This document shows, one piece after another, positions 1 through 35,740 of a stretch of 64,000 nt of DNA. The DNA is taken from positions 13,602-77,601 of IMG/VR virus record IMGVR_UViG_3300028197_001952. One strand, given 5' to 3'. The notes beneath the pieces are model-generated. The model searched no databases. It was not told the origin of the DNA and saw only the letters and a program-made list of their open reading frames with translations. The first letter of the stretch is position 1, and each line of letters starts with the position of its first letter. A program made the position numbers and the translations under genes. This DNA is from a virus.

Positions 1-369
1 TTTTAATAATTTACCATATCCAAACGCAGGTATTGAGTATCCAGATAGTTTCAAATTATCATAACCCAATGAATTAAAATATTCTGTGTGTCTTGGTGTG
101 AATAATGTAGTCATAGATTCTACATCATGTTCCTTACATTTATCTATAAAGAATTTTTCATCTTCCCATGATAATTCAATACCCTTTAATCTTTGGTACT
201 CTTCCTTATATGGTCTAAACTCTTCATACTCTTCTCTCTTAGTAAACGTATCTGCTTTAATGGATTGTATTTTTAATATATCACTATCCACAGCTGCAAA
301 CTCTATCATAGATTCTAAAATAGCTCTATCACCATTGTGATTTTGACATAACTCTGAAATTATTTTCAT
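1..369 (-). CDS. neuB: NeuB-family nonulosonic acid synthase (3' end outside window)
   Basis: Not in ORF track. Manual translation from ATG at 369 gives MKIISELCQNHNGD...ILKIQSIKADT..., matching the NeuB N-terminal IxExxxNHNGD motif. Frame is open to the window edge. Confidence 0.85.
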   Translation of the reverse strand, partial: MKIISELCQNHNGDRAILESMIEFAAVDSDILKIQSIKADTFTKREEYEEFRPYKEEYQRLKGIELSWEDEKFFIDKCKEHDVESMTTLFTPRHTEYFNSLGYDNLKLSGYSIPAFGYGKLLK

Positions 370-371
370 AA

Positions 372-1196
372 CTAATTCATTTTTTCGATTACTCTATTAT
401 ATGCTTTTTCTTGAGATTCCAATGCAGTACCCCCAACATGTGGTGTTATTATAATTTTATTATTTTTTATTGATAATAAAATAGAATTTTTAACACTATG
501 TTCATTTTGGATAACATCAGTTGCATATCCTTTTATTTTATCTTCATCTATTAGAGTTAAAATATCCAATTCATTGATAATCTCTCCTCTACTTGTATTT
601 ACTATATATATTTCTTTTTGGAATTTTGATATATATTTTGAATCTATCATACCAATATTTTCATCACGCAAATCTACATTTATACTTAAGAAATCAGTTT
701 CATTAAAAAATTGACTATCTGTATAATTTATATCTGATGTGTATACATTTTTAAATATTGGTTTACAGATGTGTTCAATCATTTTTCCTAATCTACCATA
801 TCCAAGAATACCAAGAGTTTTTTCATGTAACTCTACAATATTTTTTGTATTTCTTGGTAGTGATAACATTAAATATAAATTGTGTTCGGCAGTTGACCAT
901 ATGTTTTCCAAAACCTTATCATTTTTAATTGAAATAACAGGTATTGATACATCTATATGATTTGTTCCAGTTGATGGGGATACTACCATAGATATTTTTG
1001 TATTTTTTATAAAATCATCTGTTATTTGAAACTTTTGGTAATTTGGTGCAGAAAACAAATAATCACTAGTTTGTATACTATACTTTTGTTCCAATTCTGT
1101 TAAGTCTGATAAATCTAAACACTTGTATTTAGATTCAACATTTTTTTTAAAATTTGGTAAGTGTTTGTATGGTGTTAAAAATGCAATTCGTTTCAT
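372..1196 (-). CDS. D-isomer-specific 2-hydroxyacid dehydrogenase (SerA-like)
   Basis: TLGILGYGRLG, IVNTSRGEII and ITPHVGG motifs. Start placed at 1196 because of the ATGA overlap with the upstream gene. Confidence 0.85.
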   Translation of the reverse strand: MKRIAFLTPYKHLPNFKKNVESKYKCLDLSDLTELEQKYSIQTSDYLFSAPNYQKFQITDDFIKNTKISMVVSPSTGTNHIDVSIPVISIKNDKVLENIWSTAEHNLYLMLSLPRNTKNIVELHEKTLGILGYGRLGKMIEHICKPIFKNVYTSDINYTDSQFFNETDFLSINVDLRDENIGMIDSKYISKFQKEIYIVNTSRGEIINELDILTLIDEDKIKGYATDVIQNEHSVKNSILLSIKNNKIIITPHVGGTALESQEKAYNRVIEKMN

Positions 1197-2605
1197 GGTG
1201 TGTAAAATGATTTTGGTAAAATCCATTCTTTATAGTTTTTACCAGTTTTCCAATATTCATGCTCACAATTTATTATTGCAATTTTATTATCATCACTTCG
1301 TGTCATAGATACTTCAGAATTTATACAAAATAAAAATTCATGTATATCTCTATCATTTATTCCAATTACATGCGTTTCCATATACATACAAATTCCACTA
1401 AAATTATTTTTTGTTACCAACTCTTTCCAACTATCAACGGAAGGTCTAATAAAACATTCATCAAGTGGTGAGTAGTGAGGTTGAAAGATAAAAGTTTTAG
1501 AATTAGAAAATACTTCTTTCAGTAATTTTTTATTTTCATATAAAAAATTGTAATATTTTTGTACTAATTTATATTCATCGGAATTCCATTGATCAGTTTG
1601 ATTAGAAATACCCAAATTATTTAAGTTCTGACCAGTGGAAATTATTTCATTATAACTATTATATAAATCTGATATATTTGATTTGTATTTTATGTGATTT
1701 GGATATCCTTTCTTGTGTTTATTATGGTTATAGTATAAATGTTGTTGGTTTATTTTATTTTTATTATCTAACAAGTGTACGTTACTCGTGTATATGTTAA
1801 ATCTGTTATTTGATAATAATTTATAAAAGGAATTTATAGATTTTAGTGATTTAGATTTATATGAATCAGATGAATGGTGGCTACGATATACTCCTCCCAA
1901 AAAAGATTTACCTTTAATACTAAAACACTTTAGTATAGTAATATCAAATTCTTTGTGTTTTTTAAATCCCCTATCATAGTCAATACCCTCAATACTTGGT
2001 GTTGAGAAAGTGGCTACTATATTATTTTTATCTACATTAGAATTTGGTCTATAAACTTTAAGTAACTGCTCAATTGTTTCAATTTTTGTAATATAGTTAC
2101 TGACATTCATTTTGACATTATGTTCCTTCTTTACATAAATTAATACGTTTTTTAAATTGGTTCGTGTAAAAACACTACCTTGTGCTCTTGTTTGACCTGG
2201 ATGAATTATAAATTCATAATTATCGATTGAATCATCATTAAGATTTATTATTGTATTGTAATGTGATTCATCATTTGGTTTAAAACTTACATGTAGTGGC
2301 AAATTTGTATCGAAATCACAATCAAGTAGTTCATTTACTATATTAATTCGTTGCCTTAATGTATATGGTGCATCACCACGTTCAAAATATTCATCTATAC
2401 GTTTGAATGCATTTGAGTAATCATCAAGTGATTTAAATAATCCTGTATTATCATACATCCAATTATTTCTTACATCGGTATTTGTTGAAGTTTGTGCTCC
2501 ACAATCTTTAGCTGCAACTGCCCATGGTAATGATGTAACATGATATATATCTTGTTTTGATAAAATTTCATTTATCATAGATTTATCATACTCTGATATA
2601 ATCAT
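1193..2605 (-). CDS. hypothetical protein (470 aa), possible ParB/Srx-like motif
   Basis: Long ORF inside the operon. IIHPGQTR loosely resembles the ParB-like GxxR motif. Confidence 0.5.
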   Translation of the reverse strand: MIISEYDKSMINEILSKQDIYHVTSLPWAVAAKDCGAQTSTNTDVRNNWMYDNTGLFKSLDDYSNAFKRIDEYFERGDAPYTLRQRINIVNELLDCDFDTNLPLHVSFKPNDESHYNTIINLNDDSIDNYEFIIHPGQTRAQGSVFTRTNLKNVLIYVKKEHNVKMNVSNYITKIETIEQLLKVYRPNSNVDKNNIVATFSTPSIEGIDYDRGFKKHKEFDITILKCFSIKGKSFLGGVYRSHHSSDSYKSKSLKSINSFYKLLSNNRFNIYTSNVHLLDNKNKINQQHLYYNHNKHKKGYPNHIKYKSNISDLYNSYNEIISTGQNLNNLGISNQTDQWNSDEYKLVQKYYNFLYENKKLLKEVFSNSKTFIFQPHYSPLDECFIRPSVDSWKELVTKNNFSGICMYMETHVIGINDRDIHEFLFCINSEVSMTRSDDNKIAIINCEHEYWKTGKNYKEWILPKSFYTP

Positions 2606-2614
2606 AATTTATAT

Positions 2615-3541
2615 TTAGTTACTAGTTTTTATATTTTCTAACATTGGTACAAGTTCTTTATATGAACAATTTTTACAATGAGATGTTGGATTGTTTGTAT
2701 TACATCCATTTTGTACATTTTGAAAATCTTCTGAACTTCGTATATCATCTAAACTTTCTTCAAATAGATTTCCGAATGGTTCAGCTGCGGTATTTAAACA
2801 ACACATCTTTACATTACCCTCTACGGTTGTATATAATCCTTCATTAACCCAATAACAATCTTCATAATCCCATTTAGATTTTCCTTTTACATTATCACCC
2901 CAAGATTTTAAATACTGTAGTTGTTCATTGGTATATCCACCTGGCATACTCTTATCTTCACTCCAATCTTGTGCAATATTTAAACGAAGTTCTTCTAAAC
3001 CATATCCATCTACGATTTCATCACTTACTCTCTGTATATCACTTACGTTTTGAGGATTGACAACATAATTACAAGTTACCCTACATCCTCTTCTATCCAT
3101 TTCTTTAAAATCACCTAGAAATGATAATAATCTACTCCACTTTGCAGGAGAACGATCTCTTTCGTAACTTTTATCATACCCATCAATTGAAAAGTACAAT
3201 AAATCAATATATTGTAATGCATCTTGAAAGCGGTCTCTCAATGGCCTTCCTTCACCAATATTATATTGACAATTGGTTGCAACTATTAAGAAAGCATCTG
3301 GAAAATATTCTTTAAATATTTTACATACTTCATTAAATTTTGGATGTAACATTGGCTCACCCATACCCATTAGTTTAGCTTCAGTTATTGGATGATGTTT
3401 TATACTTTCCATTAATGTTCTAAACTTTTCGATAGGCATATGTTTCAATGCACCGATTACTTCATCTCTATTACAAAATGAACAAGCAAGATTACAATAG
3501 TTTGTAGTTTCTAAGTAAACATATGTGATTGGTTTATTCAT
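2615..3541 (-). CDS. radical SAM / SPASM-domain protein
   Basis: CNLACSFC, GMGEPMLHP, and C-terminal Cys residues (C...GNVKMCC...CKNC). Confidence 0.9.
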   Translation of the reverse strand: MNKPITYVYLETTNYCNLACSFCNRDEVIGALKHMPIEKFRTLMESIKHHPITEAKLMGMGEPMLHPKFNEVCKIFKEYFPDAFLIVATNCQYNIGEGRPLRDRFQDALQYIDLLYFSIDGYDKSYERDRSPAKWSRLLSFLGDFKEMDRRGCRVTCNYVVNPQNVSDIQRVSDEIVDGYGLEELRLNIAQDWSEDKSMPGGYTNEQLQYLKSWGDNVKGKSKWDYEDCYWVNEGLYTTVEGNVKMCCLNTAAEPFGNLFEESLDDIRSSEDFQNVQNGCNTNNPTSHCKNCSYKELVPMLENIKTSN

Positions 3542-4196
3542 TATATATAAGTTTTGCTAATTTAAAATCCAATTCAGTATCTACATCAATCAGTTCATTT
3601 TCACTCCAATCTATTACAAGTGGAAATGGATTATCTTTTGTATTTGGAAACAATTCCCATTCAGATAACATATGACTTTTTTCATAAAATACTAAAGAGT
3701 GTGTGGCTGAATAAACCCAAGGTCCTGCAGTTGTAGATAATCTATCATTAGCTTTAAAATTTATTGGATTTTTTATTTTATCCCAAAAAAAGTTTCTTTC
3801 TTTCTGAACCGTTATTGCACTTTTGCAATCAGATTGTTTAAACCAATCTATTAATTTCTGCAACTCTTCTACTTTAACAAAAGGTTGACATGGATTATAA
3901 TTAATGATATAATCAGACTTCACTTTATTAAGATGATCATACATTATAGAATGGGGTGCATTTCCAGGTTTAACTGATTCATAACTTCTATGTAATATAT
4001 CAACACCATCTATGATGTGTTCTTTGAGTTCTTCATCATATGCTGCTAGATACTTTTCATCTACATTATTTAATTCAGATAAGTTTGATAATGCAATATC
4101 AATTAAAGTATTACCATCTCCCAAATTACGTAAATGTTTATTAGGACAACGAGTACTATCTTTTCTAGCGTGTATTATAATTGCTATTGTTTTCAT
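3534..4196 (-). CDS. neuA: acylneuraminate cytidylyltransferase (CMP-nonulosonate synthetase)
   Basis: IIHARKDSTRCPNKH and IDVDTELDF motifs; lies near neuB. Confidence 0.8.
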   Translation of the reverse strand: MKTIAIIIHARKDSTRCPNKHLRNLGDGNTLIDIALSNLSELNNVDEKYLAAYDEELKEHIIDGVDILHRSYESVKPGNAPHSIMYDHLNKVKSDYIINYNPCQPFVKVEELQKLIDWFKQSDCKSAITVQKERNFFWDKIKNPINFKANDRLSTTAGPWVYSATHSLVFYEKSHMLSEWELFPNTKDNPFPLVIDWSENELIDVDTELDFKLAKLIYNE

Positions 4197-5060
4197 TTAA
4201 TATGTTTCTATTAATTTATTATTAATATAAAATTGTAATTTTTTATTCTGTTTATCTATAATCATTTTTGCGTTACCTTCACCAAAATAATTACCCAATT
4301 TCATTTCCCATTGTTTGTTTGATAAATCATCAATAGTAATATAGTTACTGAATTTCTTATATGGGGATTGTACAAATATTGGAACTGCACTACCCAATGA
4401 TGATAAAAATAACATCCTATGAGTACCCCTATCTAACATAGAACTTGTACTATTATAACAAATTGGATATATTATTCCATTTTTTTTCATATTAACATAT
4501 TGCCTTTCATCCAAATCAATTCTCCATGCAAATTCTTCATACGTTCTAAAGAAGTTTGTTATTGAAATTTTAGTAGGATATTTTATATCAAAAAGTGCAG
4601 ATACTTCATCTATCGATTCTTTACTTAAATCTGTTTTATCAATCTCTTTTATAAATTCCCTATATATTTCTATATTTGGATTTGAATGTACGGCTTTCTG
4701 ATATTTATCAAAGAATATACTTGGAATTTCTAAATACATAAAAGAATCCCATGTTTTATTCAACCCAGTCATATCCATTGATACCACATCTGATTTAGTT
4801 ACAGTTTCCGTATTATCATCATTTCGTATCCAATGACATTTAGGAGGATATCCCCACCAAAATCCACCATCATCCTTTTTATCAATATCGGAATTAAATG
4901 GAACTGTATTAGTTCCATCATTTTCTTCTGATTCTAAATTATTTTGTATTCTAAGCTCTGTTTCATTATACAAATCAATAACCTTCTGATATGGTATAAT
5001 ATCAAATGGTTCAAGGTGTTCAAATACATCAAATAAATATTTTACTTTACTTTTCTTCAT
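4197..5060 (-). CDS. hypothetical protein with ParB/sulfiredoxin-like motif
   Basis: GIIYPI...LDRGTHRM resembles the ParB-N PI...DGxHR signature. Confidence 0.5.
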   Translation of the reverse strand: MKKSKVKYLFDVFEHLEPFDIIPYQKVIDLYNETELRIQNNLESEENDGTNTVPFNSDIDKKDDGGFWWGYPPKCHWIRNDDNTETVTKSDVVSMDMTGLNKTWDSFMYLEIPSIFFDKYQKAVHSNPNIEIYREFIKEIDKTDLSKESIDEVSALFDIKYPTKISITNFFRTYEEFAWRIDLDERQYVNMKKNGIIYPICYNSTSSMLDRGTHRMLFLSSLGSAVPIFVQSPYKKFSNYITIDDLSNKQWEMKLGNYFGEGNAKMIIDKQNKKLQFYINNKLIETY

Positions 5061-5847
5061 TTATATATCTATATAATTCGTTTGCAAATAATACATGCCC
5101 AGCTCTACTTGGATGTGCAGGTGTATTTTTATTTGATTTCCATTTATCTTTTTCAAATAATGATTTATCATTAAATTCATGTAAAAATGATGAAATATTT
5201 TTTAAATCAAATCCCCAATATTTAGTTTTATCTATTAAATCAATTTTATCATATTCTTTAGAATATACCATAGATTCAAATGCATCAACCATTATATAAT
5301 TTATATTATTATGTTCTAAATACTTTTGAAGTATCATTATAATATTTTGATTGTACATCGAATAATAATAATCATCATACATATCTGTTATGTAAAACTT
5401 TATATACCCATCCATGAAGGATTGTAGCTCAGTATTTTCTGGATGTTCTAATCCAGGTATTAAACTTTGTTTGATTTCGATTCTACTATCTGCGATACCG
5501 TTTATTCTATCTCTTTTCTTAAAATTAGAGGGAAAGAACGATGGAGTATCTCGTAACGAAGAAGTAAATGATATTAATACAAAATCATCAGAAGTTATTG
5601 ATTCGCTGAATACCTTATTAAGTATATCAATATTAGAACAACCATTTTCTCCTAAATTTAGATAATCACAATTAAACTTATCTGCTAGTAATTTTGTGAA
5701 AGAATTACTTCTTCTAAATTTATTACAAATCTTTCTAGCCTCTGTCTTATCATCTCCAACAGAATTATCAAATATTTGTTGTTCGTATTCTCTATCAGTT
5801 CCCAATCCTACTGTAAAACTATCTCCAAATGATACTATTCGTTTCAT
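5047..5847 (-). CDS. SGNH/GDSL hydrolase-fold protein
   Basis: FGDSFTVG, NLGENGCSN and a C-terminal HPSRAGH. Confidence 0.75.
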   Translation of the reverse strand: MKRIVSFGDSFTVGLGTDREYEQQIFDNSVGDDKTEARKICNKFRRSNSFTKLLADKFNCDYLNLGENGCSNIDILNKVFSESITSDDFVLISFTSSLRDTPSFFPSNFKKRDRINGIADSRIEIKQSLIPGLEHPENTELQSFMDGYIKFYITDMYDDYYYSMYNQNIIMILQKYLEHNNINYIMVDAFESMVYSKEYDKIDLIDKTKYWGFDLKNISSFLHEFNDKSLFEKDKWKSNKNTPAHPSRAGHVLFANELYRYINEEK

Positions 5848-6692
5848 ATTTCTAAATATTTTGCAAAATTATCAAAATCTAATAAATTATAATTAGACCA
5901 GTCAGCTGATTCGTATACTCCATCCAAGTCAGATAATTTAAACGCGTTCCAATCATCTACTAGTACTATAGGAAATAATTTAGCAAAATGCTCAGTAACT
6001 ACGTTTCTATGGCATATTGGAACTATTTTAAGATATAAACACTCCCACATCCTATGACAATCTATTCCGTTTCCTTCTGGACTTAAACAGAACTTATATC
6101 TAGCTAAATCTTTAACGTACTCTTTAAACTTTAACCGTTTACTTTCATTTAAATTTAATCTAACTCCGGCTGCATAACATAACGGTCTCCAGTATTTTCT
6201 CTGTCCTCCTATAATTTCAAAGTTAAAATACACCAATTCTGTTTTAGGTATATCGTTACTAATTACTGAATTAAAGTAATCCAAATCTCCCCACTCCCAT
6301 CTACTATTAGCTAATCCTATAGGAATAGGAATTAATCTCTCATGAGTAGTATTTACATTTTGACTATATATTTTTTTAATATTGGGTATATCAAAAAGGA
6401 TTTTATGAGCTTCATCAAAAGAATCATCAGACTGATGTAGTATTAAATCAAAAGGGTTTTTGAATTTTTTAAGTTTATCAATGAACTCACTTTCAAGCAA
6501 TTTAGGTTTAAATCTATTCAAAAGAGAACTATTTGCGTATACTAAAGAAGGGTTATTATAATTCTCAAAATCAAATTCATCGATATCCAACCATAAACTA
6601 TCTGCATTACTACTTTCGAAAGTTGTATGTTCTTTTTTACTAATCCCTACATGACAAATATCTTGCCATTTTTCTCCTGATATTATATTCAT
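5844..6692 (-). CDS. exostosin-like (GT47-related) glycosyltransferase
   Basis: YKFCLSPEGNGIDCHRMWECLYLKIVPI matches the exostosin FCLxPxG...R..E.L...VP pattern. Confidence 0.75.
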   Translation of the reverse strand: MNIISGEKWQDICHVGISKKEHTTFESSNADSLWLDIDEFDFENYNNPSLVYANSSLLNRFKPKLLESEFIDKLKKFKNPFDLILHQSDDSFDEAHKILFDIPNIKKIYSQNVNTTHERLIPIPIGLANSRWEWGDLDYFNSVISNDIPKTELVYFNFEIIGGQRKYWRPLCYAAGVRLNLNESKRLKFKEYVKDLARYKFCLSPEGNGIDCHRMWECLYLKIVPICHRNVVTEHFAKLFPIVLVDDWNAFKLSDLDGVYESADWSNYNLLDFDNFAKYLEI

Positions 6693-7462
6693 TTTTGAAT
6701 TCTTTTATTTTCATCTATAATAAACTTAAAAATATTTAGATTCAGTTTTTCTTTTTCTACAAATGATGATAGGGCAGATACATCTTTTGGTAAACACGAA
6801 CCACCAAATCCCTTAAACTCTTTACTATAACCCAAATATTCATCTTCACCTACGTTTTCTAATAAAAATGCATTTAGTACTTGATTATAATCTACACCTA
6901 AATGGTTACTAAGTTCTCCATATGTAGTTGAAAAGATAGTTCTTAAAGCTTTATAAGAATTAGAATAATATTTAGCGAGTTCTGATTCTGATGGTTTTAC
7001 TTGTGTAACTGTTTTAGGATAATGTCCATGAGAATTAACTACATCTAAATATGCTGATTTATGAGTAGTTCCTACGATAAGTACATTGTGGTTTTTTGTA
7101 AAATCTTCATATCCACATCGTTCTCTTAAAAATTCAGGTACATGTGCTAGCTTTAAATCTTTATACTCTTCTTGTAGTTTTGTAGTAGTACCTGGTTGTG
7201 TTGTGGATTTAATGGCTACTGTTCCTTTATATTCATACTCTGATAATTTCCTTATTAGTTGTTCTACTATTGAAACATCACACGAACCATCTTTATTTTG
7301 TTTTGTAGGAACACATATATAAATTATATCACTATTTAGAGTACCCTCTAATGAAGATTCAGGTATTTTAATATCATAAACATATACCGAATGGTTTAGT
7401 TCCTTAAATGCTTTTGTAATTGCAGTACCAACCATTCCATAACCTATAACCCCTACATTCAT
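6689..7462 (-). CDS. ugd: UDP-glucose/GDP-mannose dehydrogenase family protein (short form)
   Basis: GYGMVG, ICVPT, IKST, PEFLRE and GFGGSCLPKD motifs. Confidence 0.85.
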   Translation of the reverse strand: MNVGVIGYGMVGTAITKAFKELNHSVYVYDIKIPESSLEGTLNSDIIYICVPTKQNKDGSCDVSIVEQLIRKLSEYEYKGTVAIKSTTQPGTTTKLQEEYKDLKLAHVPEFLRERCGYEDFTKNHNVLIVGTTHKSAYLDVVNSHGHYPKTVTQVKPSESELAKYYSNSYKALRTIFSTTYGELSNHLGVDYNQVLNAFLLENVGEDEYLGYSKEFKGFGGSCLPKDVSALSSFVEKEKLNLNIFKFIIDENKRIQK

Positions 7463-9185: not shown

Positions 9186-9188
9186 AAT

Positions 9189-10019: not shown

Positions 10020-10443
10020 TGTTAAAAGTTTTTAATTCAATTCTATGACCGATACAATCCCCATAGATGTTATTATTAGTTCTACTAGCATTTGCAACAA
10101 TCGCAAATACAAATGAATTACAATACATAATATCTTCATTAAGATAACATTTATTATTGTGACCACTGTGGTTTATTTCTTGAGTAAATAGTACATTGTA
10201 GGTTACATCAATATTATTAAAATATTTTGTGAATATCAACTCTTTTAAATTTTTAAACAATGGTATATTGTTTAATATTAAATGACCATTGTAGAATTCA
10301 TCATTATCTAATTCATATCTCTTAATTTTAGTATAACATTCTTCTATAGTACCAACATATAAATCAACATGTGGTGGAAATGAGTAATCTAGTTCCTCTG
10401 AAACTATTAATGTTATCTTTTGATTATAAAAATTGTTGTTCAT
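9982..10443 (-). CDS. hypothetical protein
   Basis: 153-aa ORF overlapping both neighbours. Confidence 0.45.
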   Translation of the reverse strand: MNNNFYNQKITLIVSEELDYSFPPHVDLYVGTIEECYTKIKRYELDNDEFYNGHLILNNIPLFKNLKELIFTKYFNNIDVTYNVLFTQEINHSGHNNKCYLNEDIMYCNSFVFAIVANASRTNNNIYGDCIGHRIELKTFNNENSSLFKWPVT

Positions 10444-14918: not shown

Positions 14919-16348
14919 AATTTTATAGTTTGTGTTTGTTCGTAAAAATCTGCCAGTTCTGGATAAACTTCTTTAAAATTAGTTTCTCTACGTCTATCAT
15001 GTTCTTTAAAAAACACTCCAAAATCACGTCTTTGTTTTAATAACTCTTCTTCATTTCTATCGGTAAGCATCCAATCATATGTTCTTTTTACTTTTTGTAT
15101 CTCAACATCAGAATATCCAACGTGTTGATGTTCAAATTTTGGAATACCGAGATAATTCATATGACTTGCTGCATCTTTTATTTTTATAGCCCATTCTTCT
15201 GGTAAAATCTTTACAGTTTGGTGTTTAGGATATCGTAAATAAGATGTATCTAAAAATACTGCAGAGTTCCAATATCTATCACTTGAAGTGTATTTCATCT
15301 TTAAACCATAAATATAATCTATTAATTCTTTATAACTTGGTACTGATAGTGCATTAAAAGTTGACATTACTGTGATACTAATTCGTTTACAACTTGAAAG
15401 AATTTTATTTACATTTTTATCAAACTGTTCCCAATTTAATCCGTTTCTAATGTACTCTGCTTGTTCTCCATACCCATCAACTGATGTGAATATAATAAAT
15501 TCTTCTACAAGTTCCTTTTCTTCAATTGCTTGAATCTTTTCTATTAATCTATCAACTAATTTATCAGGAATTCCTAAATTAGAATTTATTGCTAATCTTA
15601 ATTTTTTATTTGGGTTAGGTTCGTTTATAATATAATCTAAAACTCCCCAAGTATCTTTACTCATAAGTGGTTCTCCACCTGTGATTCTAAAAGTATGTAA
15701 ATCTCTATATAAATCTGGCCACCATCTCCAAAATGCTTCTACATAAGGATTTTCTTCTGTATGTAATATAGGAACTTTACCCTCTCCAATCAAACCTTCC
15801 AAATCATTAAATTTATCAAGTGTTGGATATGCTCCTTCTGCTTTTATTTCTTGCATCCATGCTGATGAAAACGAAGGTCCACAATATGAACATTTAAAGT
15901 TACAAGCATTTGAGAAAGCAACTTCTACATATTTTGGATTATAATCTCCTCTCCAGCCCAAATCTTTAATTTCTTGCATATGAGGAAGTGACCAAGATTC
16001 TGCTGATTTAAATACTCTATCTGAAAACTGAGGTGATGCATCTTCAACATCCCAACAATAATGACACTCTTCAGGCCTTCCACCTTCTAACATTTCTTTA
16101 CGAATACGTTTTTTAAAACGTGTGTTGTGTAGTGCAGAAGGATTTCGTTTTATCTCACTTTCATTTATCTTATGTGTTGTTGGGTGATGACAAGAATGAG
16201 TATGTCCCATTTGTAAGTGAATTGTAACTTGTGTCCATTTAGCTAAACAGAATCCACATCCTTGTGCATCAAGTTCTTTTTTGGTATTCACATATATTGG
16301 ATTGTTAGCAAAAGCTAAAGAAGGATCTAATTTTGGAGTTTCACTCAT
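14915..16348 (-). CDS. radical SAM protein with N-terminal twitch/SPASM-like cluster
   Basis: CLAKW..SCHH..ECHYCW, then CNFKCSYC and TGGEPL. Confidence 0.9.
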   Translation of the reverse strand: MSETPKLDPSLAFANNPIYVNTKKELDAQGCGFCLAKWTQVTIHLQMGHTHSCHHPTTHKINESEIKRNPSALHNTRFKKRIRKEMLEGGRPEECHYCWDVEDASPQFSDRVFKSAESWSLPHMQEIKDLGWRGDYNPKYVEVAFSNACNFKCSYCGPSFSSAWMQEIKAEGAYPTLDKFNDLEGLIGEGKVPILHTEENPYVEAFWRWWPDLYRDLHTFRITGGEPLMSKDTWGVLDYIINEPNPNKKLRLAINSNLGIPDKLVDRLIEKIQAIEEKELVEEFIIFTSVDGYGEQAEYIRNGLNWEQFDKNVNKILSSCKRISITVMSTFNALSVPSYKELIDYIYGLKMKYTSSDRYWNSAVFLDTSYLRYPKHQTVKILPEEWAIKIKDAASHMNYLGIPKFEHQHVGYSDVEIQKVKRTYDWMLTDRNEEELLKQRRDFGVFFKEHDRRRETNFKEVYPELADFYEQTQTIKL

Positions 16349-17820
16349 AATTTTACGTTTATTAATTTTGCTTTTGTTGATATTTCTTCAATATCTAATA
16401 ACTCATATTTCAATTGTTTGATACCATCTGATTTATAATCCCATGTTCCTTGTTGCATCTCGTGGATGTATCTTTTCTCGTTTCGAGCAGTAGTTTCTCC
16501 CTTTGCCCATACATCGTTTCCACTTGAATCTTTAATCATTCCTTCATCTTGATGTGGTAAACAATTCATTTTACCATCTTTACGATGAGGTATAATAGTA
16601 TGTGGAATTTTAATTTTTTCTTTATTAAACATTCCTCTTGTTATTTTACCATTTATACCATTACCACTTAAATCAATGGCCATTCTCGTTGAATTAACTT
16701 GTTCTTTGTTGTTAAAATCATAATGTAACACGAGTTTATCAGTTGAGATTTCCTTATGTAATTTTGAAATTTCATTAGAATCTAAACATCGATTCCACAT
16801 CATTACTTTAGCTATATCACCCTTAAACCATTTGTTTGGTTCTGTTCTAGCAGTTGAGGTTGTTGTTCCTAAATAATAATCATCTAATCCATATGATTTT
16901 AATCTATCTTCATATTTAAGTGGTGATTGTGTGCCATGACCATGTCTTGCATCTGATTCTTTTCCATTTAAATAGAAATGTATATTTTGTTTAGATGTAT
17001 CAACACTTAGTGTAATCCATGCCCATTGGTTTTCATATCTTTTTATCCATTGATATAAATGATTCTGAGTACTATCCCATAATTGAGCAGTATATGCTCT
17101 TGAATTATTATAACTCAATCCATAATCATATCCTGGTCTTCTTAGAATTGGATATTCACAAAATCTTCTATCTTCATCACCTATTAACCAAATTGGAACT
17201 TTTTCTTCTTGTTGATTTGCTCTTACTAAAACGGAAATTGTATGTGAACGAGATGTTAATGATTTTAATTTTTTATGTTTTGGTATTTTTACAAAACTGT
17301 TTTTACCATTAAATGATAAGTAGTTATTTAATGTACCTGAGTAATCAAGATAAGTATTATTTGCATATCCCTCTAAATTACATCTCCAAAATAAATCATC
17401 ATCTTCCATTCCCCAATCCCAATAATCATTTGAATAACCATTAGTTTTTTCTACTTGTTCTTTTGAAAATAAAACTGCTCCTCCAAAGTATTCTTCATAC
17501 TTTAGATTATAATCCATTTGAGATATTGAAGTTGCAATATGTATTGGAGTTGTTTTAGGAAACGAATAATCAGCACCTCCCCCGTCTTCAGGTATCATAT
17601 CGATATCATGCCAAACAATATAATCACACCCATCTTCAAACGCATGTTTAGCAGCAACATTTTTCATAGCTCCCCTATTAAAAAGTTTATCATCACATTG
17701 ATGACCAAAGTACATACAATACTCTATTCCTTTAGAGTCCAAATATGCTCCTACTTTTGGTACAAACTCTTTTAAATGAGCTTCTCTGTTTCTATAAGGA
17801 ACACAAACTCCTAGTTTCAT
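16345..17820 (-). CDS. GT7 (beta-1,4-galactosyltransferase family) with internal LamG domain
   Basis: VPYRNR, FNRG, HDID, YFGG and NGYSNDYWDWGMEDDD, then a LamG segment (FYLNG, FKGDI, DLSGNG), then the GT7 tail (SDGIKQLKY). Confidence 0.85.
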   Translation of the reverse strand: MKLGVCVPYRNREAHLKEFVPKVGAYLDSKGIEYCMYFGHQCDDKLFNRGAMKNVAAKHAFEDGCDYIVWHDIDMIPEDGGGADYSFPKTTPIHIATSISQMDYNLKYEEYFGGAVLFSKEQVEKTNGYSNDYWDWGMEDDDLFWRCNLEGYANNTYLDYSGTLNNYLSFNGKNSFVKIPKHKKLKSLTSRSHTISVLVRANQQEEKVPIWLIGDEDRRFCEYPILRRPGYDYGLSYNNSRAYTAQLWDSTQNHLYQWIKRYENQWAWITLSVDTSKQNIHFYLNGKESDARHGHGTQSPLKYEDRLKSYGLDDYYLGTTTSTARTEPNKWFKGDIAKVMMWNRCLDSNEISKLHKEISTDKLVLHYDFNNKEQVNSTRMAIDLSGNGINGKITRGMFNKEKIKIPHTIIPHRKDGKMNCLPHQDEGMIKDSSGNDVWAKGETTARNEKRYIHEMQQGTWDYKSDGIKQLKYELLDIEEISTKAKLINVKL

Positions 17821-18230
17821 ATTGTATCTGATATTAGCTTTTTAAACTTGGTTGTACTCCAACCATGTGAACGGTCTATCCAATGAATAAGTATACCCAA
17901 ATCTTTTCCTGTATATGGATTATCTATATAATCCTCTCCTAAAAATCTTACATCAGGATTAATTGATTTTAATAAAAAATATAACTCTTCTTCGGTATCA
18001 TAAGTTAAGAAAGTAGGATTGGTAAAAAAATATTTTAACATACTCTTACGTTCTTCTGTATTTAAGATTGGTTTTAATTTTTCAGGTCTTTGTATTTGTG
18101 GATTATCATGTAACAAAATATATTGGTTCGTACATTTATTATTCATCTCTTCAAATAGCTGGATATAACCTGGATGTATCACATCAAAGTTTCCACAAAT
18201 TACTCCTATTTCTAATTTACTTACTTCCAT
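17817..18230 (-). CDS. cytidylyltransferase (TagD/RfaE-like)
   Basis: GNFDVIHPGY, EER, LGEDY and RSHGWSTT. Confidence 0.85.
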   Translation of the reverse strand: MEVSKLEIGVICGNFDVIHPGYIQLFEEMNNKCTNQYILLHDNPQIQRPEKLKPILNTEERKSMLKYFFTNPTFLTYDTEEELYFLLKSINPDVRFLGEDYIDNPYTGKDLGILIHWIDRSHGWSTTKFKKLISDTI

Positions 18231-19660
18231 AGTTCTACTGATATAAAATAATAATTATCCATTTTTGTATCTGATAATAATTTAAATCTAACATTATCAA
18301 TTCCATCTCGTTTATAATCAGATTTTCCGTTTAATACTTTGTTATAAAAATGTAATTGATTTTTTCTTGTATCTGTCCAAGTCCATTTGTTTTCATAGAA
18401 TCCATTTTCTTTATGATATAACAATTCAAAGGTAGAATCTCTTCTCCATGGTATTGGTATTGACATAAAATCATTAACTTGTTGAATTGGTACTTTACCA
18501 CAATCCATAACTTCGGCAGTTCTACCTTTTCGGTTTCCACTTAAGTCAGGAATACTAGAATAAGTTGCAGTTTTCATATCATAACATACTTCAAGAGTAT
18601 GTGGTACAATATAATCACCAAATGCTTCTGTAAGACCCATTGATTTGTTTGTAGATATTTCCTTAATTTGAGCTTCCTCTAGTGAATGATTAAACATTGC
18701 GAAATAATCAACTGTTCCACCGAAAGGTCTTCTATTATTAAATTCCAATGAAGGAGAATCACCCAAGTACATCTTCTTTTCAGAAGCATAGTTTAATAAC
18801 TTACCAGGAAATTCAATTAAATCTATTAGTTCACCATCTTGATAAAATTTAATAACATTATCATCTTGATTTACAGTAACACATAATGTAGTTTGCTTTG
18901 GAGGAGATATGTTTGATTTTAAACTTATACACTCTTTATCGGTATTAAATACTTCAAATTTATATCTTTTATATGAATTATAAGAAAAACTTAAATCATA
19001 TCCAGGAATACAGAAAAGATTATACTCATCTGATGGGAATCCTTCGTTACATTGAATTTCATTTGGTTCAAAAGAACATAATATAGTGTAGTTTTTTAAC
19101 CTAAAAGGTTTAGGCATAGTAACCTTACTAGTATATCCATTGAGTTCTAATGCAGCTGAAGAGTGTGAATTTAATGGTAGTTCTTTTGTGTTAAAATCAG
19201 TAAAGTTTTCCTTACATCTCCAAAGTAAATCATCATCCTCATAACCCCATCCCCAATATTTGTTAGAATACCCATTTATATGATAATAATCATTTATTGG
19301 AAACATAGTAACACCACCAAAATATTCATCAAAAACAATACGTTTCTGCTTTTTGTAGTGGTTTGATGTGAAATCAGTTGCAAGATGTGTAGGTCTATCT
19401 ACTATCGAATAATCGACCTCTGAACTTGGTATCATGTCAACATCATGTAGTACTACATAGTTACACCCAAGTTCCTTAGCTTTATTCACACCTATGTTTA
19501 ATAGAGAACCTCGATTGAACGGAAGTTCATCGGATTGTTCTACTATAATCAATTCATAATCTATCTTAGATTTATTGAAATGATTTTTTATAGATGTTGT
19601 AAAGTGATTTAGGTGCGTTCTACGATTCCTATATGGTACAATGATACCAAGTTTATTCAT
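18221..19660 (-). CDS. GT7 glycosyltransferase with internal LamG domain (paralog)
   Basis: IVPYRNR, FNRG, HDVD, YFGG and YWGWGYEDDD; LamG segment (FYQDG, DLSGN); RDGIDNVRF tail. Confidence 0.85.
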   Translation of the reverse strand: MNKLGIIVPYRNRRTHLNHFTTSIKNHFNKSKIDYELIIVEQSDELPFNRGSLLNIGVNKAKELGCNYVVLHDVDMIPSSEVDYSIVDRPTHLATDFTSNHYKKQKRIVFDEYFGGVTMFPINDYYHINGYSNKYWGWGYEDDDLLWRCKENFTDFNTKELPLNSHSSAALELNGYTSKVTMPKPFRLKNYTILCSFEPNEIQCNEGFPSDEYNLFCIPGYDLSFSYNSYKRYKFEVFNTDKECISLKSNISPPKQTTLCVTVNQDDNVIKFYQDGELIDLIEFPGKLLNYASEKKMYLGDSPSLEFNNRRPFGGTVDYFAMFNHSLEEAQIKEISTNKSMGLTEAFGDYIVPHTLEVCYDMKTATYSSIPDLSGNRKGRTAEVMDCGKVPIQQVNDFMSIPIPWRRDSTFELLYHKENGFYENKWTWTDTRKNQLHFYNKVLNGKSDYKRDGIDNVRFKLLSDTKMDNYYFISVELWK

Positions 19661-19670
19661 CGATACTTAT

Positions 19671-19856
19671 TTATTTTTTTAGAGGTTTGATTGTACTCTC
19701 ATACCACTCAGACATGTACCACTCTAATCTGGGACCCCATGCTTCTTTATCAATCTCTTCTACCCACAATGTAAGTGCATCTAAGGAATTACCGATTTTT
19801 TCAAGTGCTTTTACTTTTCTTTCTTCTAAAATTTGTGAAGTTTCATCTTTTGCCAT
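19671..19856 (-). CDS. small hypothetical protein
   Basis: 61-aa ORF downstream of a late-type motif. Confidence 0.55.
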   Translation of the reverse strand: MAKDETSQILEERKVKALEKIGNSLDALTLWVEEIDKEAWGPRLEWYMSEWYESTIKPLKK

Positions 19857-19913
19857 AACGTAAATTAATTAATTGTTTTTGTTTTTGTTTGTTGTATATA
19901 AATATATAAATTA

Positions 19914-20762
19914 CTAAATTTTAATAATTTTTCTTGCTAATCTATTCCACTTTGAGTAATCGAAATGAAAATTACTTTCCATTTTTTCTAGCATAAATTC
20001 AGGATTGTTAATATCAATTTTCCAATCGTTAATCTGAATAGCCTTGTACATCTTTTTATACTCTTCCCAAAAGGAATATTTTTCTTCAGTTTCAGAAACT
20101 TCTTTTAATCGTTCTAAAACGGTTGAATCCCACTTAAAGTGATGAACTTGTATAAATCCTTCACCTCTACCAATTGGGTATCTGAGAGGATGTTTAAATC
20201 CCTTCTTACCCCATACATGAGATTTGTTTATGATTGCATAATGTTGACCAGGTGTTACATCCACCGAACCTTTCATTATACAAACTTTATTTGGACAAGC
20301 ACCACTCATTGGATATCTAAAAAATCCAGCGAGTGGAAACTCACTCCATATATTAGTTTCTTTTGTCACCAAAGGAAACTCTCCGTTCTCTCCTATCCTA
20401 TCGAGAAAACCTCCTGTAATGAATTCCCATCCACCCTTTTCACAATCAGAAATCATTTCTCTGATTGGTTTGGGGTAAATATGGAATTCATCATCATCCG
20501 AAACCACCCACCATTCAAGGGGCTTGGTTCGTTTAATTTCGTTATATAATTGAGTTACTCTTTCCCAATTAAATTTTTCTTCTGTTACTACTTTATGTGG
20601 GGTTATTCCGAGGGATTTTATTTCATCTAAAATGCCATCGTTTTCATGTTGTCTATAAACAACAACATAAATTTCATCAACAATGTTTTTGTAGTGTTCC
20701 AACATATGTGGAAGCATTGTGATGTTATGACCAACAACTGTTACAAGATTTATCCTTTGCAT
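19914..20762 (-). CDS. GT2-like glycosyltransferase
   Basis: LEHY, WWVVSDDDEF, PGQH and HHFKW. Confidence 0.7.
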   Translation of the reverse strand: MQRINLVTVVGHNITMLPHMLEHYKNIVDEIYVVVYRQHENDGILDEIKSLGITPHKVVTEEKFNWERVTQLYNEIKRTKPLEWWVVSDDDEFHIYPKPIREMISDCEKGGWEFITGGFLDRIGENGEFPLVTKETNIWSEFPLAGFFRYPMSGACPNKVCIMKGSVDVTPGQHYAIINKSHVWGKKGFKHPLRYPIGRGEGFIQVHHFKWDSTVLERLKEVSETEEKYSFWEEYKKMYKAIQINDWKIDINNPEFMLEKMESNFHFDYSKWNRLARKIIKI

Positions 20763-21529
20763 TTCTGAATAAATGTTATTCCAGTTGATGATGGTCTATT
20801 TCTAAGTATACCATTATTAAAAAAGTTGAAAATTTCCCACTCTTTACTTTCTTTTAATTCGGTTATAAGTTTAGAAGGTCCGTTTGAATACTCTTGGTGA
20901 AAATCATCAAGAATATCATCTGAAATAATATGTTCTTTTTCATATGATGAGTCGGTATCGTGAATTGTTATTATACCATGTGGTGAAAGTAGTGTTGAAT
21001 ATAAGTCAAAATCATTCTTTACATCTTCATAAGTATGACCTGCATCAATATGTAAAAAATCTATTTTAATATCTTCTTTTACAAAAAAGTTATAGTATGC
21101 ATTTTCTGTTGTATCTAATATAAATCTACAGGGAAACTTTTTTCTAAAATATGAATTTTTATCAATCCAATCTGTAAATCCACCAACTCCATTGGATGCA
21201 TCTACTAATATAGTTGTTCCACTATCACCCCATTCCATTGATTTATTACCATCAAATATTTCTTGCTCATGTAAATCAATTCTAGCTTGGGATATAATTC
21301 TTGGAATAAATCCCCCACCACTTCCTAAACATACACAAGTTTTTGCTCTCATATATTGTATGGCAGTATATATTAACATACCATCTCCTAGATGTTTATC
21401 AGTAGCTCCATGAGTCCATCGATATTTAACAGGAGTTAATTCATCATATATCTTACCATTAACATCAATAGATTCTATTCTATTATTGGTAAAGTATTCT
21501 TTTATAAGATTGTAGTTGATTATACTCAT
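20750..21529 (-). CDS. class I SAM-dependent methyltransferase (Methyltransf_24-like)
   Basis: CLGSGGG, IDFLHIDAGHTYEDVKNDF and GIITIHD. Confidence 0.8.
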   Translation of the reverse strand: MSIINYNLIKEYFTNNRIESIDVNGKIYDELTPVKYRWTHGATDKHLGDGMLIYTAIQYMRAKTCVCLGSGGGFIPRIISQARIDLHEQEIFDGNKSMEWGDSGTTILVDASNGVGGFTDWIDKNSYFRKKFPCRFILDTTENAYYNFFVKEDIKIDFLHIDAGHTYEDVKNDFDLYSTLLSPHGIITIHDTDSSYEKEHIISDDILDDFHQEYSNGPSKLITELKESKEWEIFNFFNNGILRNRPSSTGITFIQKCKG

Positions 21530-21569
21530 TATATATAAGTATATATAAATATATTAAACAATAAATTAA

Positions 21570-22784
21570 TTACGAAATATATGAATTAATATTTTTTATC
21601 CAAGTTTCTCTATTATCAAAAGTAAGCATATACGTTTTTAGTTTAGCAAACTCGGTATATCTTTGTTGGTGTGTATCTTTACGTATCTGTTTAATACAAA
21701 TATCAAATTCATTTTTTGTTGATGCTCTATATTTGTAATCAACATCCTTTGCCCAATCTGTGTGAATGATTGGTAACTTACCATAATCTATTGCTTGAAA
21801 TATTGAATAACCAAATGGTTCTTTGAAGTATGCCCCATGGAAGATACCAAAATCCTTTCTCATGAAAGAATCAAGAATTTGTGGAGACCATTGATAAAAT
21901 TTAATATTAGGAAACGTATAACTAGTAGTATCTCTTAAATTAACAAAATCATATTTACCAGATAAAATAAATCCACCATGTCCATGCATCCAATGCATAC
22001 ATTTTCTTGTTTCAGCTCTAGAAGCAAATCCTATGTTTTTAAAATTTAGATTTTCGTTAAATGAAATATTGTGTTTAAATTCATAAAAATTAGGAACGGA
22101 ATAGGTGTAATTTGGAAAATCATCTGTAAGTTGTGTTGGGTTATTTCCTACCCAAATTCTTTTGTCAAATGATTGTACAAATTCTTTATAGAAAGCAGAA
22201 TCAACTTTTGTATTAAATTGTAATCTTTTTAATTCTGGCATATGTGTTAGAACTTCTTCCATTTCACTTGGATATGCATGAACAAATAATAATTTAAATT
22301 TGTTTTCATATTTCCAAATGTGTTCTCTTTTATGATAATGTGAATGCAAATAATATATCTCTGAACATTCTTCTAACAAATCAGTTGTTATTTCATGGTC
22401 ATCTCCATGAAAATGCCAATCCAAATCCTCTGGTAAAGATGATGGGTCAAAGTCAACAGGTCTTTTTGAATCAATTAATAATTTCCAATGTTTTCTCCAT
22501 TTAATTCCTTTCCAAATATTTTTTATAAAATGATTTGTCCAAATATCAGCACCACCTTCTATAGTATTACCACAACCAGTAGTAATCATTAGTTTCTTAC
22601 CCATTTTTTTACCATCGGTTGGATTTCTTAATCTTTCTTCAAATGGAAGTTCATTATTAATTTTTGAAACCAACACATCAGTATCTATAAATTCATCTGA
22701 GTTTATTAGGTAATTTACTAACGAAGATGTTAGTTCTTTTTTTTCTTTTTTATATAACTTCATTAATTTTGTTTTTAACCACAA
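21570..22784 (-). CDS. GT4-like glycosyltransferase
   Basis: EGGADIW and EPFGYSIFQAIDYGKLPI. Start is uncertain. Confidence 0.65.
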   Translation of the reverse strand: MWLKTKLMKLYKKEKKELTSSLVNYLINSDEFIDTDVLVSKINNELPFEERLRNPTDGKKMGKKLMITTGCGNTIEGGADIWTNHFIKNIWKGIKWRKHWKLLIDSKRPVDFDPSSLPEDLDWHFHGDDHEITTDLLEECSEIYYLHSHYHKREHIWKYENKFKLLFVHAYPSEMEEVLTHMPELKRLQFNTKVDSAFYKEFVQSFDKRIWVGNNPTQLTDDFPNYTYSVPNFYEFKHNISFNENLNFKNIGFASRAETRKCMHWMHGHGGFILSGKYDFVNLRDTTSYTFPNIKFYQWSPQILDSFMRKDFGIFHGAYFKEPFGYSIFQAIDYGKLPIIHTDWAKDVDYKYRASTKNEFDICIKQIRKDTHQQRYTEFAKLKTYMLTFDNRETWIKNINSYIS

Positions 22785-31252: not shown

Positions 31253-31305
31253 AGAAATATATCTTTCCAATATAAATATTTAGAAAAAATATTTACTCAT
31301 ATATA

Positions 31306-35614: not shown

Positions 35615-35740
35615 GTAAATATACGAAATTAAATCCACATATCCTAATTTTATTAATAATTTTTCGTCAATGGTCTTAAGACATGTTAAAATGTTTTTAC
35701 CCATATGATGTAATATACGAAATTATTCTGATATATCCAA
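35615..35740 (-). promoter_or_regulatory. two tandem host-type promoters upstream of primase
   Basis: TTGG-atatatcagaataattt-CGTATATTAC and TAGG-atatgtggatttaattt-CGTATATTTAC. Confidence 0.65.

Follow-up and report, generated by a model that had tools for sequence, protein, structure and literature searches.

A conserved glycosyltransferase core and an exchangeable sugar cassette behind the fibre-like gene of an uncultured marine T4-like phage: a candidate virion glycosylation system

The stretch of viral DNA described here (64,000 nucleotides, referred to as the window; bases 13602-77601 of the 77.6-kb IMG/VR virus record IMGVR_UViG_3300028197_001952) carries an island of sugar-handling genes directly behind the gene for a 2831-amino-acid (aa) fibre-like protein. 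An original prediction held that some 26 contiguous, co-oriented genes at this place encode a glycan that the phage builds for its own virion. Every gene and open reading frame of the window lies on the minus strand, and the G+C content is 26-38%. The backbone is that of a distant T4-like myovirus, with a T4-type portal and large terminase (TerL), baseplate wedge, hub/lysozyme pieces, a primase and an SbcC-like nuclease; TerL shares 55-56% identity with its counterparts in Microcystis phage Mel-JY01 and Flavobacterium phage immuto, as against about 32% with those in cyanomyophages. CheckV puts the completeness of the record at 41%. The source is an abundant T4-like phage of marine waters that has not been cultured, and metagenomes of at least 11 marine studies hold near-identical DNA. 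The island core and the fibre gene are covered by contigs that come from RNA libraries of four marine metatranscriptome studies; these contigs record presence only, their depth does not rank genes, and uncovered parts are not evidence.

Exactly 26 abutting or overlapping genes fill the window from position 22784 to position 1, starting at the stop of the 2831-aa reading frame, and within them just two gaps exceed 30 nucleotides (nt), at 21530-21569 and 19857-19913. The block runs 3.4 kb past the left window edge, through the rest of a NeuB-like gene and four more genes encoding a HisC-like aminotransferase, an APH-like kinase, an NTP-transferase and a cupin epimerase. The whole island comprises 30 genes in 26.2 kb, bounded by the fibre-like gene and the packaging genes. 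A gap of 186 nt separates its end from a gene for an 1853-aa multidomain nucleotidyltransferase, which is followed by two small genes, the terminase and the portal; the flanks are thus SbcC and the fibre gene at one end, the 1853-aa protein and TerL at the other. Seven glycosyltransferase candidates are accompanied by activation and tailoring enzymes, and four or five of the 30 proteins have no family assignment. The idea that bacterial DNA had been binned as viral was rejected because phage genes flank the block on one contig and because the block is found again in over 200 viral contigs, among them complete genomes that have terminal repeats.

Comparison with relatives, for which 80 IMG/VR loci were fetched out of 204 matches to one of the island's GT7 proteins, resolves the island into a mosaic of a conserved transferase core and an exchangeable supply-and-tailoring cassette. 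The fibre-like gene and the core, in the order of transcription, are as follows.

22775..31270, minus strand: 2831-aa fibre-like virion protein, Ser plus Thr 26%, Gly 10%, rich in repeats
21570..22784, minus strand: p404, GT-B glycosyltransferase of GT4 type by predicted fold, core (AlphaFold 2 pLDDT 86.8; 64 of 80 loci)
20750..21529, minus strand: class I S-adenosylmethionine (SAM) methyltransferase, core (Methyltransf_24, Pfam 3.4e-11; 74 of 80 loci)
19914..20762, minus strand: GT2-type glycosyltransferase, core (Glyco_tranf_2_4, Pfam 3.7e-6, barely above cut-off; 76 of 80 loci)
19671..19856, minus strand: s61, helical Trp-rich protein of 61 aa, core (75 of 80 loci, duplicated in some)
18221..19660, minus strand: GT7a, GT7 glycosyltransferase with LamG inserted in the catalytic domain (7N 7e-19, 7C 4e-16, Laminin_G_3 8e-9)
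17817..18230, minus strand: 137-aa cytidylyl/adenylyl-transferase, like RfaE domain II (CTP_transf_like, Pfam 3.5e-9; 24 of 80 loci)
16345..17820, minus strand: GT7b, second GT7 with inserted LamG, core (7C 5e-19, 7N 6e-15, Laminin_G_3 1.4e-10)
14915..16348, minus strand: 477-aa twitch-domain radical SAM enzyme, core (NF033640 6e-106, above cut-off; 79 of 80 loci)
14151..14918, minus strand: p255, weakly supported free LamG-like protein (hhalign to the GT7 LamG: probability 39%, E 3e-4, 196 columns; 26 loci)

The order of the locus is kept across the 80 loci: SbcC as a flanking gene, the fibre-like gene, 3-4 kb of variable DNA, p404, methyltransferase, GT2, s61, GT7a, an optional 137-aa transferase, GT7b and radical SAM enzyme. 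Each core gene was found in 64-80 of these loci, always in the same order, and the island constantly lies behind a fibre-like gene and ahead of packaging genes. A third GT7 paralogue is present at many loci, and tandem paralogues of the radical SAM gene number from one to seven.

The predicted GT7 family is confirmed, as two enzymes match both Pfam halves of the family above the gathering cut-offs (GT7b, 7C 68.1 bits against 23 and 7N 55.5 bits against 27; GT7a, 7N 68.2 and 7C 58.8 bits). Like the animal beta-1,4-galactosyltransferases of GT7, the phage proteins possess both halves together with a DxD-type HD.DM motif, FGG and W.WG.EDDDL; these three motifs are invariant in 21 aligned GT7 sequences, down to H71, D72, D74, M75, W134, W136, G137, E139, D140, D141 and D142. 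We take HD.DM and EDDDL to be the equivalents of the metal-binding DxD and the W-G-x-E-D-D-D catalytic segment of the animal enzymes. The phage GT7 proteins differ from the animal enzymes in being soluble, without a signal anchor, in occurring almost only on phage contigs, and in an insertion of about 200 aa, for their catalytic domain is not contiguous: Laminin_G_3 occupies residues 172-352, between the EDDD segment and a C-terminal YK.DGI..L.Y motif. GT7b has 204 IMG/VR relatives of 58-92% identity on contigs of up to 288 kb, some of them complete with terminal repeats. Since GT7-LamG was found in only three of 185,579 GTDB species genomes, each time on a contig of a metagenome-assembled genome, the combination appears to be phage-specific. 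These three contigs (L087, L088 and L089) are labelled Pelagibacterales, Anaeromicropila and Flavobacteriaceae, the last being 248 kb long, and are probably phage genomes binned with possible hosts, which provides a weak host lead. A tblastn search of GT7b against 50,697 cultured-phage records returned no match; immuto and Mel-JY01 are thus without GT7-LamG.

Among the other core products, p404 has no Pfam or PDB sequence match, and its assignment as a GT-B transferase of GT4 type rests on its modelled fold, for which the top Foldseek matches are GlgM, PimA, BshA and WaaG (E 3e-9 to 1e-7). The same fold ruled out p404 as a fibre chaperone. NCBIfam matches of the 137-aa transferase fall below cut-off. 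The small protein s61 has a conserved core, LEERKVKALEKIANSLDALTLWFEEIDK.EWGPR.EWYL, between variable ends. Its position beside many radical SAM enzymes raised the idea of a ribosomally synthesised and post-translationally modified peptide (RiPP), which was discarded when the alignment revealed a helical, Trp-rich protein lacking a Cys/Ser/Thr-rich core.

Behind p255 the island changes character. A cassette of about 17 kb lies between p255 and the cupin gene and is common, among the fetched loci, only to L004, whose GT7b is 92% identical. Its genes within the window are listed here.

13328..14200, minus strand: DUF6071 protein with a GDSWT motif, start of the cassette (Pfam 4e-13; shared only with L004), possibly an SGNH-like esterase/acyltransferase by our reading of the motif
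12562..13335, minus strand: DUF6071-like protein, weak (Pfam 1e-3, below cut-off; NGCSFTAGD motif), which we likewise read as SGNH-like
11295..12578, minus strand: p427, moderately supported GT-B-like glycosyltransferase (AlphaFold 2 pLDDT 72; Foldseek OtsA/Tps1, E 2e-4)
10424..11308, minus strand: p294, faint likeness to DUF7796 (Pfam E 0.25; N-terminal AGQLRHW motif like that of p276)
9982..10443, minus strand: p153, no match in family searches
9189..10019, minus strand: p276, DUF7796-like (Pfam E 0.011; Atlas neighbours are viral DUF7796 clusters, 0.98)
8409..9185, minus strand: p258, candidate Stf0-type sulfotransferase (RSGGT motif near the N-terminus; Atlas neighbours include Stf0 clusters, 0.95)
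7459..8409, minus strand: 316-aa GT-B glycosyltransferase, weakly MJ1255/VC2487-like (TIGR00661 9e-7, far below cut-off; GYGH motif)
6689..7462, minus strand: 257-aa UDP-glucose/GDP-mannose dehydrogenase-like (Ugd-like) protein (N domain 2e-18, central domain 2e-14; GGSCLPKD present)
5844..6692, minus strand: p282, sub-threshold candidate GT47/RXYLT1-like transferase (RXYLT1_C E 0.004, residues 171-232; FCLSPEGNGIDCHR motif)
5047..5847, minus strand: DUF6071-like protein with a GDSFT motif, which we read as SGNH-like (Pfam 8e-4, below cut-off)
4197..5060, minus strand: p287, no match in family searches
3534..4196, minus strand: 220-aa protein of the CMP-sugar synthetase family, NeuA/KdsB/PseF-like (CTP_transf_3, Pfam 7e-11)
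2615..3541, minus strand: 308-aa radical SAM/SPASM enzyme (Radical_SAM 7e-14, SPASM 4e-8; no NCBIfam match above cut-off)
1193..2605, minus strand: p470, chance-level matches only
372..1226, minus strand: 284-aa protein of the D-2-hydroxyacid dehydrogenase family (2-Hacid_dh_C 9e-29; NCBIfam below equivalog cut-offs)
1..369, minus strand: NeuB-family synthase of 277 aa, of which the N-terminal 123 aa lie in the window (Pfam NeuB 1.2e-31, 110 bits for the whole protein)

In most relatives the corresponding downstream set consists of a short-chain dehydrogenase/reductase (SDR) dehydratase/epimerase, a cupin, a protein like the E1-alpha subunit of thiamine diphosphate enzymes, a GDP-fucose-synthase-like reductase and two p427-like GT-B proteins. 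Weak relatives of p427 are present in 60 loci, two per locus, and a per-member Pfam scan of 22 aligned p427 homologues gave noise only. PDB profile and sequence searches likewise gave no informative match, whether for the fibre protein or for p404, p427, p258 and p276. Five loci (L034, L043, L071, L082 and L083) have five to seven tandem NF033640 twitch radical SAM paralogues in place of the SDR/cupin cassette; a marine T4-like genome with 12 radical SAM genes has been published (PMC5332604), and may be a member of this group. A conserved core joined to a swapped cassette is the pattern of a glycan under diversifying selection.

The enzymes of the island would fit the acidic, sulfated, methylated or acylated glycan of the original prediction, in the form of an acidic, methylated and acylated product that is possibly also sulfated and carbamoylated; methylation, O-acylation, sulfation and carbamoylation are each plausible from the families to which the proteins belong. 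The Ugd-like protein retains the N-terminal and central domains and the catalytic Cys motif of the UDP-glucose dehydrogenases, so that the predicted family stands, but at 257 aa it is a short form from which the C-terminal UDP-binding domain is absent. For the predicted exostosin/GT47 transferase there is a trace: the match of p282 to Exostosin_GT47 is sub-threshold (E 0.058, 13 bits against a cut-off of 33) and spans about 60 residues (171-232). With no polymerising synthase found, GT47 below threshold and the Ugd-like protein short, a glycosaminoglycan-like polymer is not supported, and no island protein matched GT64 or the HAS-type or KfiC-type synthases. Of the predicted sulfotransferases, the island itself contains one candidate, p258, which has no HMM (hidden Markov model) or PDB match; the Pfam-supported Sulfotransfer_2 protein lies outside.

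Nonulosonate chemistry is partly supported, at the level of families. The predicted NeuB and CMP-transferase were both recovered by Pfam, and the NeuB-like protein matches NeuB (4e-11) and PseI (9e-11) in the PDB. The CMP-transferase, however, is not assignable among NeuA, PseF and KdsB (its best NCBIfam matches are KdsB subfamilies and PseF, all far below cut-offs), no SAF domain was found in the NeuB-like protein, whose match stops at position 226 of the 241 in the profile and is not followed by another domain, and the Pfam and NCBIfam matches of the 30 genes include none for the upstream hexosamine steps (NeuC; PseB, PseC, PseH or PseG; Leg enzymes) and no nonulosonate transferase. The short NeuB-like form need not be defective, because a NeuB of 290 aa is present in the PDB (6ncs). 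The cupin epimerase is closest to Campylobacter GDP-D-glycero-4-keto-D-lyxo-heptose 3,5-epimerases (6e-31); the cupin and the NeuB-like protein thus match single steps of the capsule heptose and nonulosonate pathways of Campylobacter jejuni, whose partner enzymes were not found.

All of these enzymes are soluble. None of the 30 island proteins has a hydrophobic segment (the maximal Kyte-Doolittle mean over 19 residues is below 1.3), and the island thus lacks a flippase, a polymerase and a polyprenyl-phosphate transferase. Soluble enzymes without export or lipid-carrier machinery point to a glycan that is assembled in the cytoplasm.

A short element, ATATTTATA, had been predicted at three places in the island and is found at each of them on the minus strand.

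21544..21552, minus strand: ATATTTATA, 14 nt before the methyltransferase start
19897..19905, minus strand: ATATTTATA, 40 nt before s61
7526..7534, minus strand: ATATTTATA, 63 nt ahead of the Ugd-like gene and inside the 3' end of its upstream neighbour

The window contains 12 copies where 6.5 are expected, a number reached by one of 100 shuffles. Strand bias and spacing from start codons are a stronger signal than copy number: of the 15 copies in the whole contig, 14 are on the coding strand; their distance to the start codon downstream is 3-63 nt, mostly 13-28 nt, and TA usually follows them. As predicted, the element is common to the island and to structural genes. Apart from the methyltransferase, s61 and the Ugd-like gene, it heads a carbamoyltransferase gene, several baseplate/tail operons, the genes of a 1798-aa protein and of the 2831-aa and 1853-aa proteins, the operon that ends in the terminase, and the gene before the portal. 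In immuto and Mel-JY01 the 9-mer or its 8-mer core precedes the terminase, the portal, the gene after the major capsid gene, the tail tube and tail-fibre-like genes, and it is absent ahead of the primase, exonuclease and nucleotide-metabolism genes that lie in the same stretch of those genomes. In the relatives of the island, a search of the 160 nt ahead of each gene found the 9-mer for 31 of 70 methyltransferase and 18 of 75 s61 genes, as against 0 of 74 GT2 and 0 of 80 GT7b genes, with a background of 2.6% per window for the 8-mer core; L004, the closest relative, retains all three island sites. The motif is therefore a real element common to the particle genes of this lineage. On the coding strand it reads (A)TATTTATA(TA), which does not match the T4 late-promoter consensus TATAAATA, and like T4 late-type promoters it is a short, AT-rich, strand-specific element situated tens of nucleotides before particle genes. 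Late expression of the island may be inferred from this motif. Scans of the island for sigma-70 promoters (135, against 152 in shuffles) and intrinsic terminators (6 against 3.9) did not rise above shuffles, which fits long polycistronic units. One further copy, at 45663-45671, lies 3 nt before the annotated ATG of the 1798-aa protein, and the true start is thus further downstream or the transcript is leaderless.

The gene ahead of the island was predicted to encode a tail fibre. The 2831-aa protein contains three repeats of about 200 aa and a short collagen-like run; the repeats match a Bacillus phage 'tail protein/peripheral baseplate component' at E values of 1e-12 to 1e-15. The protein has no HMM match in Pfam or PHROG and no PDB sequence match. 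Its true start is likely the ATG about 18 nt after the motif at 31271. A tripeptide, [ST][GA]S, chiefly SGS, is enriched beyond composition (z 3-7) in five tail/fibre proteins (window 37024-38178, 38265-39488, 40263-45659, 49065-50126 and 22775-31270) and is nearly absent, save for stray single or double matches, from the other approximately 55 proteins scored. It was considered as a glycosylation sequon and set aside when the sites proved to be positionally conserved in the homologues of immuto and Mel-JY01, phages without GT7-LamG; it may be a structural turn motif instead.

The islands of relatives were surveyed by a Pfam census, in which one representative was used for each of 147 gene clusters flanking the core. 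Radical SAM enzymes account for nine clusters, SDR epimerase/dehydratases for seven, prolyl 4-hydroxylase (P4H)-type 2-oxoglutarate oxygenases for seven, Peptidase_S74 fibre chaperones for four, LamG for three, PF11397 GlcNAc-transferases, HPAT and tail assembly chaperones for two each, and collagen and carbamoyltransferase for one each. Directed at polypeptides are PF11397, the family of the Skp1 hydroxyproline GlcNAc-transferase (3.5e-36), HPAT, the hydroxyproline arabinosyltransferase (6e-10), and the P4H-type oxygenases, which occur alongside the collagen, Peptidase_S74 and tail-chaperone genes. In the group L054-L058 one PF11397 gene lies directly ahead of p404. PF11397 was found neither in the complete relatives nor in the contig itself, and matched in one of 47 further records.

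Two more putative tailoring genes lie outside the island, among the tail and baseplate genes.

36165..36743, minus strand: Sulfotransfer_2 protein among tail genes, 13 kb from the island (Pfam 4.7e-14)
56971..58674, minus strand: NodU/Nol-type carbamoyltransferase in the baseplate region (phrog_1601 2e-118), 13 nt after a copy of the motif

Both are probable accessory tailoring enzymes, and a homologue of the carbamoyltransferase adjoins the glycan module in L044, L047 and L049. A SegE-like GIY-YIG homing endonuclease gene (2e-18; 35723-36208) directly follows and overlaps the Sulfotransfer_2 gene, with tail genes and primase on either side, an arrangement that suggests a mobile insertion. Elsewhere in the contig, the 1853-aa protein (contig 4412-9973, 3.6-9.2 kb left of the window) combines a CTP_transf_like nucleotidyltransferase, an HD domain and a poly(A)/CCA-polymerase head domain, and immuto and Mel-JY01 have shorter NadR-like or cytidylyltransferase-like genes at its place. 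A peptide deformylase gene (phrog_2890, 1e-18) is located among the baseplate-side genes at window 60953-61573; peptide deformylase is a core gene of pelagimyophages (PMC7029224).

Gene content and position bear out the part of the original prediction that concerns a phage-encoded, glycan-building island beside a fibre-like gene. We consider the best reading to be that the island enzymes glycosylate a virion protein, and give it about an even chance of being correct. The genes would be read as long polycistronic units from the ATATTTATA element that also precedes particle genes. The cassette would supply and tailor unusual activated sugars, from which the soluble enzymes would build a strain-variable, acidic, decorated oligosaccharide on a phage protein in the cytoplasm. 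Modification would take place ahead of assembly or in its course, and the likeliest acceptor would be the giant fibre, with its many Ser and Thr residues, or else other proteins of the distal tail. A phage-protein acceptor is favoured by the fixed place of the island behind the fibre gene and by the promoter-like element that it has in common with particle genes, and additionally by the tailoring genes among the baseplate genes and by the polypeptide-directed transferase and hydroxylase families and fibre chaperones in the relatives. A far more specific version is possible but doubtful, namely that a strain-variable, acidic, O-acylated or methylated, possibly sulfated and carbamoylated oligosaccharide, which in this phage would contain a CMP-activated ulosonic acid, is built on the giant fibre by phage-specific GT7 enzymes that read the acceptor through LamG; this would be the first complex nonulosonate-type coat of a tailed phage, and cassette exchange would act as a 'serotype switch'.

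Several considerations weigh against glycosylation of the virion. In this lineage both the virion glycan and its timing are read from genes, and the contig covers only about 41% of the genome. The polypeptide-directed families belong to the cassettes of relatives and not to the contig itself, and the [ST][GA]S tripeptide gives no specific support, given its conservation in phages without GT7-LamG. The motif differs from the T4 consensus, and a copy at 36981, upstream of Sulfotransfer_2, stands at the start of a series of genes reaching as far as primase and SbcC, which means that 'late only' expression is not established. Finally, lipid-linked glycans of the host are within reach of peripheral GT-B and GT-A enzymes that have no membrane segment, and GT4-type enzymes use lipid acceptors in this way, so that a host target is compatible with solubility.

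This last point leads to the alternative that the island remodels the host surface: the transferases would act on lipid-linked O-chain or capsule precursors, host flippase and ligase would export the product, and superinfection, or re-adsorption of progeny to lysing cells, would be blocked. Fibre-linked hypervariable islands with glycosyltransferases, rfaE, UDP-glucose dehydrogenase and radical SAM genes have been read as O-chain modification in pelagimyophages (PMC7029224). The resemblance of p404 to WaaG and PimA, enzymes that work on lipid acceptors, the affinity of the cupin for Campylobacter capsule heptose epimerases, and a turnover of cassettes like that of O-antigen loci would all fit such a role. 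We nevertheless regard it as unlikely. The 30 genes include no initiating polyprenyl-phosphate transferase, flippase, polymerase, ligase or Gtr-type membrane protein; placement and motif link them to particle genes rather than to early takeover genes; the islands of relatives carry polypeptide-directed transferase families and fibre chaperones; and a new polymer made late in the lytic cycle would have little time to act.

The acceptor could also be another cytoplasmic molecule, such as a non-virion phage or host protein, a free glycoconjugate or a small molecule, with s61 perhaps serving as carrier or adaptor. The presence of s61 in 75 of 80 loci with its own copy of the motif, the solubility of all island enzymes, and the fact that twitch and SPASM radical SAM enzymes often have peptides or small molecules as substrates are compatible with this proposal. 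It is made improbable by the conserved part of s61, which is helical, Ser/Thr-poor and unlike a glycosylation substrate or RiPP core, and by the lack of an exporter, and it leaves the fixed link to fibre genes unexplained. Least likely as an acceptor, and very improbable, is DNA carrying a mono- or oligosaccharide on a modified base for evasion of restriction, as in T4, RB69 and DLP3: although T4 alpha-glucosyltransferase is among the Foldseek matches of p404 (E ~5e-8), cytosine-arabinosylating phages encode sugar-nucleotide pathways and several transferases (PMC13326640), and GT-A/GT-B enzymes are paired with base-modifying enzymes on many IMG/VR contigs (bioRxiv 10.1101/2023.12.21.572611), the T4 match does not stand out among those to dozens of further GT-B enzymes, the module and the genes adjoining it include no homologue of thymidylate synthase, no C5-methyltransferase and no oxygenase of the TET/JBP type (a search for Tet_JBP, run without a positive control, found no match), G004, a complete 198-kb genome with the core, has no ThyA-family gene, the complete relatives G001-G003 have a canonical-scoring ThyA far from the module, and no known DNA glycan calls for anything like seven transferases combined with acyl, sulfo, methyl and carbamoyl tailoring. 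Beside the canonical ThyA, G001 (203325-203660) and G003 (186869-187219) have a second, very divergent ThyA-like reading frame of 233-238 aa (20-27 bits).

Fibre-linked hypervariable glycan islands of marine T4-like phages are already published as genomic features, as the host recognition clusters of pelagimyophages and cyanomyophages (Zaragoza-Solas et al. 2020, mSystems, PMC7029224). Those clusters and the present island are alike in being large, hypervariable parts of the structural region that contain tail fibres and many glycosyltransferases, in their rfaE-like, UDP-glucose dehydrogenase and radical SAM cassettes, and in diverging by gradual cassette exchange. The genes of the clusters have been read as modifying the host O-chain (PMC7029224), whereas we read those of the island, tentatively, as directed at the virion. 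The two further differ in lineage, with TerL about 32% identical to that of cyanomyophages, in the conserved core around GT7-LamG that is found here, and in position, the clusters lying between VrlC and gp14 and the island between the fibre gene and the block of 1853-aa nucleotidyltransferase and terminase. The present analysis adds the core/cassette anatomy in this lineage, the fold-based assignments of p404 and p427, the comparison of promoter motifs, and a census that points to protein-directed chemistry. Our search of the literature on phage nonulosonate virions and on jumbo-phage islands of glycosyltransferase and radical SAM genes found nothing relevant.

Glycans have reportedly been demonstrated on particle proteins of tailed phages in mycobacteriophages, where they are made by soluble glycosyltransferases. 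As in the island, these transferases are phage-encoded, soluble and placed with structural genes. The mycobacteriophage systems use few transferases and the sugar nucleotides of the host, whereas the island, which is known from its genes, offers about seven transferase candidates and some 20 activation and tailoring genes; enzyme families and host phylum differ as well. Giant viruses, in the capsid glycans of chloroviruses and the fibril glycans of mimivirus, encode their own sugar-nucleotide pathways, transferases and methyl or acyl tailoring for particle proteins. Their machineries, like the island, are encoded by the virus and bypass the glycosylation of the host secretory pathway, and a chlorovirus transferase is among the distant fold matches of p427; they differ in serving viruses of eukaryotic hosts, and no gene-level orthology is apparent.

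The core of GT7-LamG, GT4-like and GT2 transferases, methyltransferase and twitch radical SAM enzyme, present in more than 200 viral contigs, is a defined set of enzymes whose expression and assay do not require the phage to be cultured. Should the host surface prove to be its target, the island would represent a serotype-conversion system of unusual size in a lytic phage. If, on the other hand, the particle is the target, open-ocean tailed phages would invest about 15% of the genome in a sugar coat of their own, a coat that would diversify by cassette exchange in the manner of bacterial O-antigens, and this would bear on phage adsorption, stickiness to marine particles, grazing and decay, and on the determinants of host range within 'host recognition clusters'.

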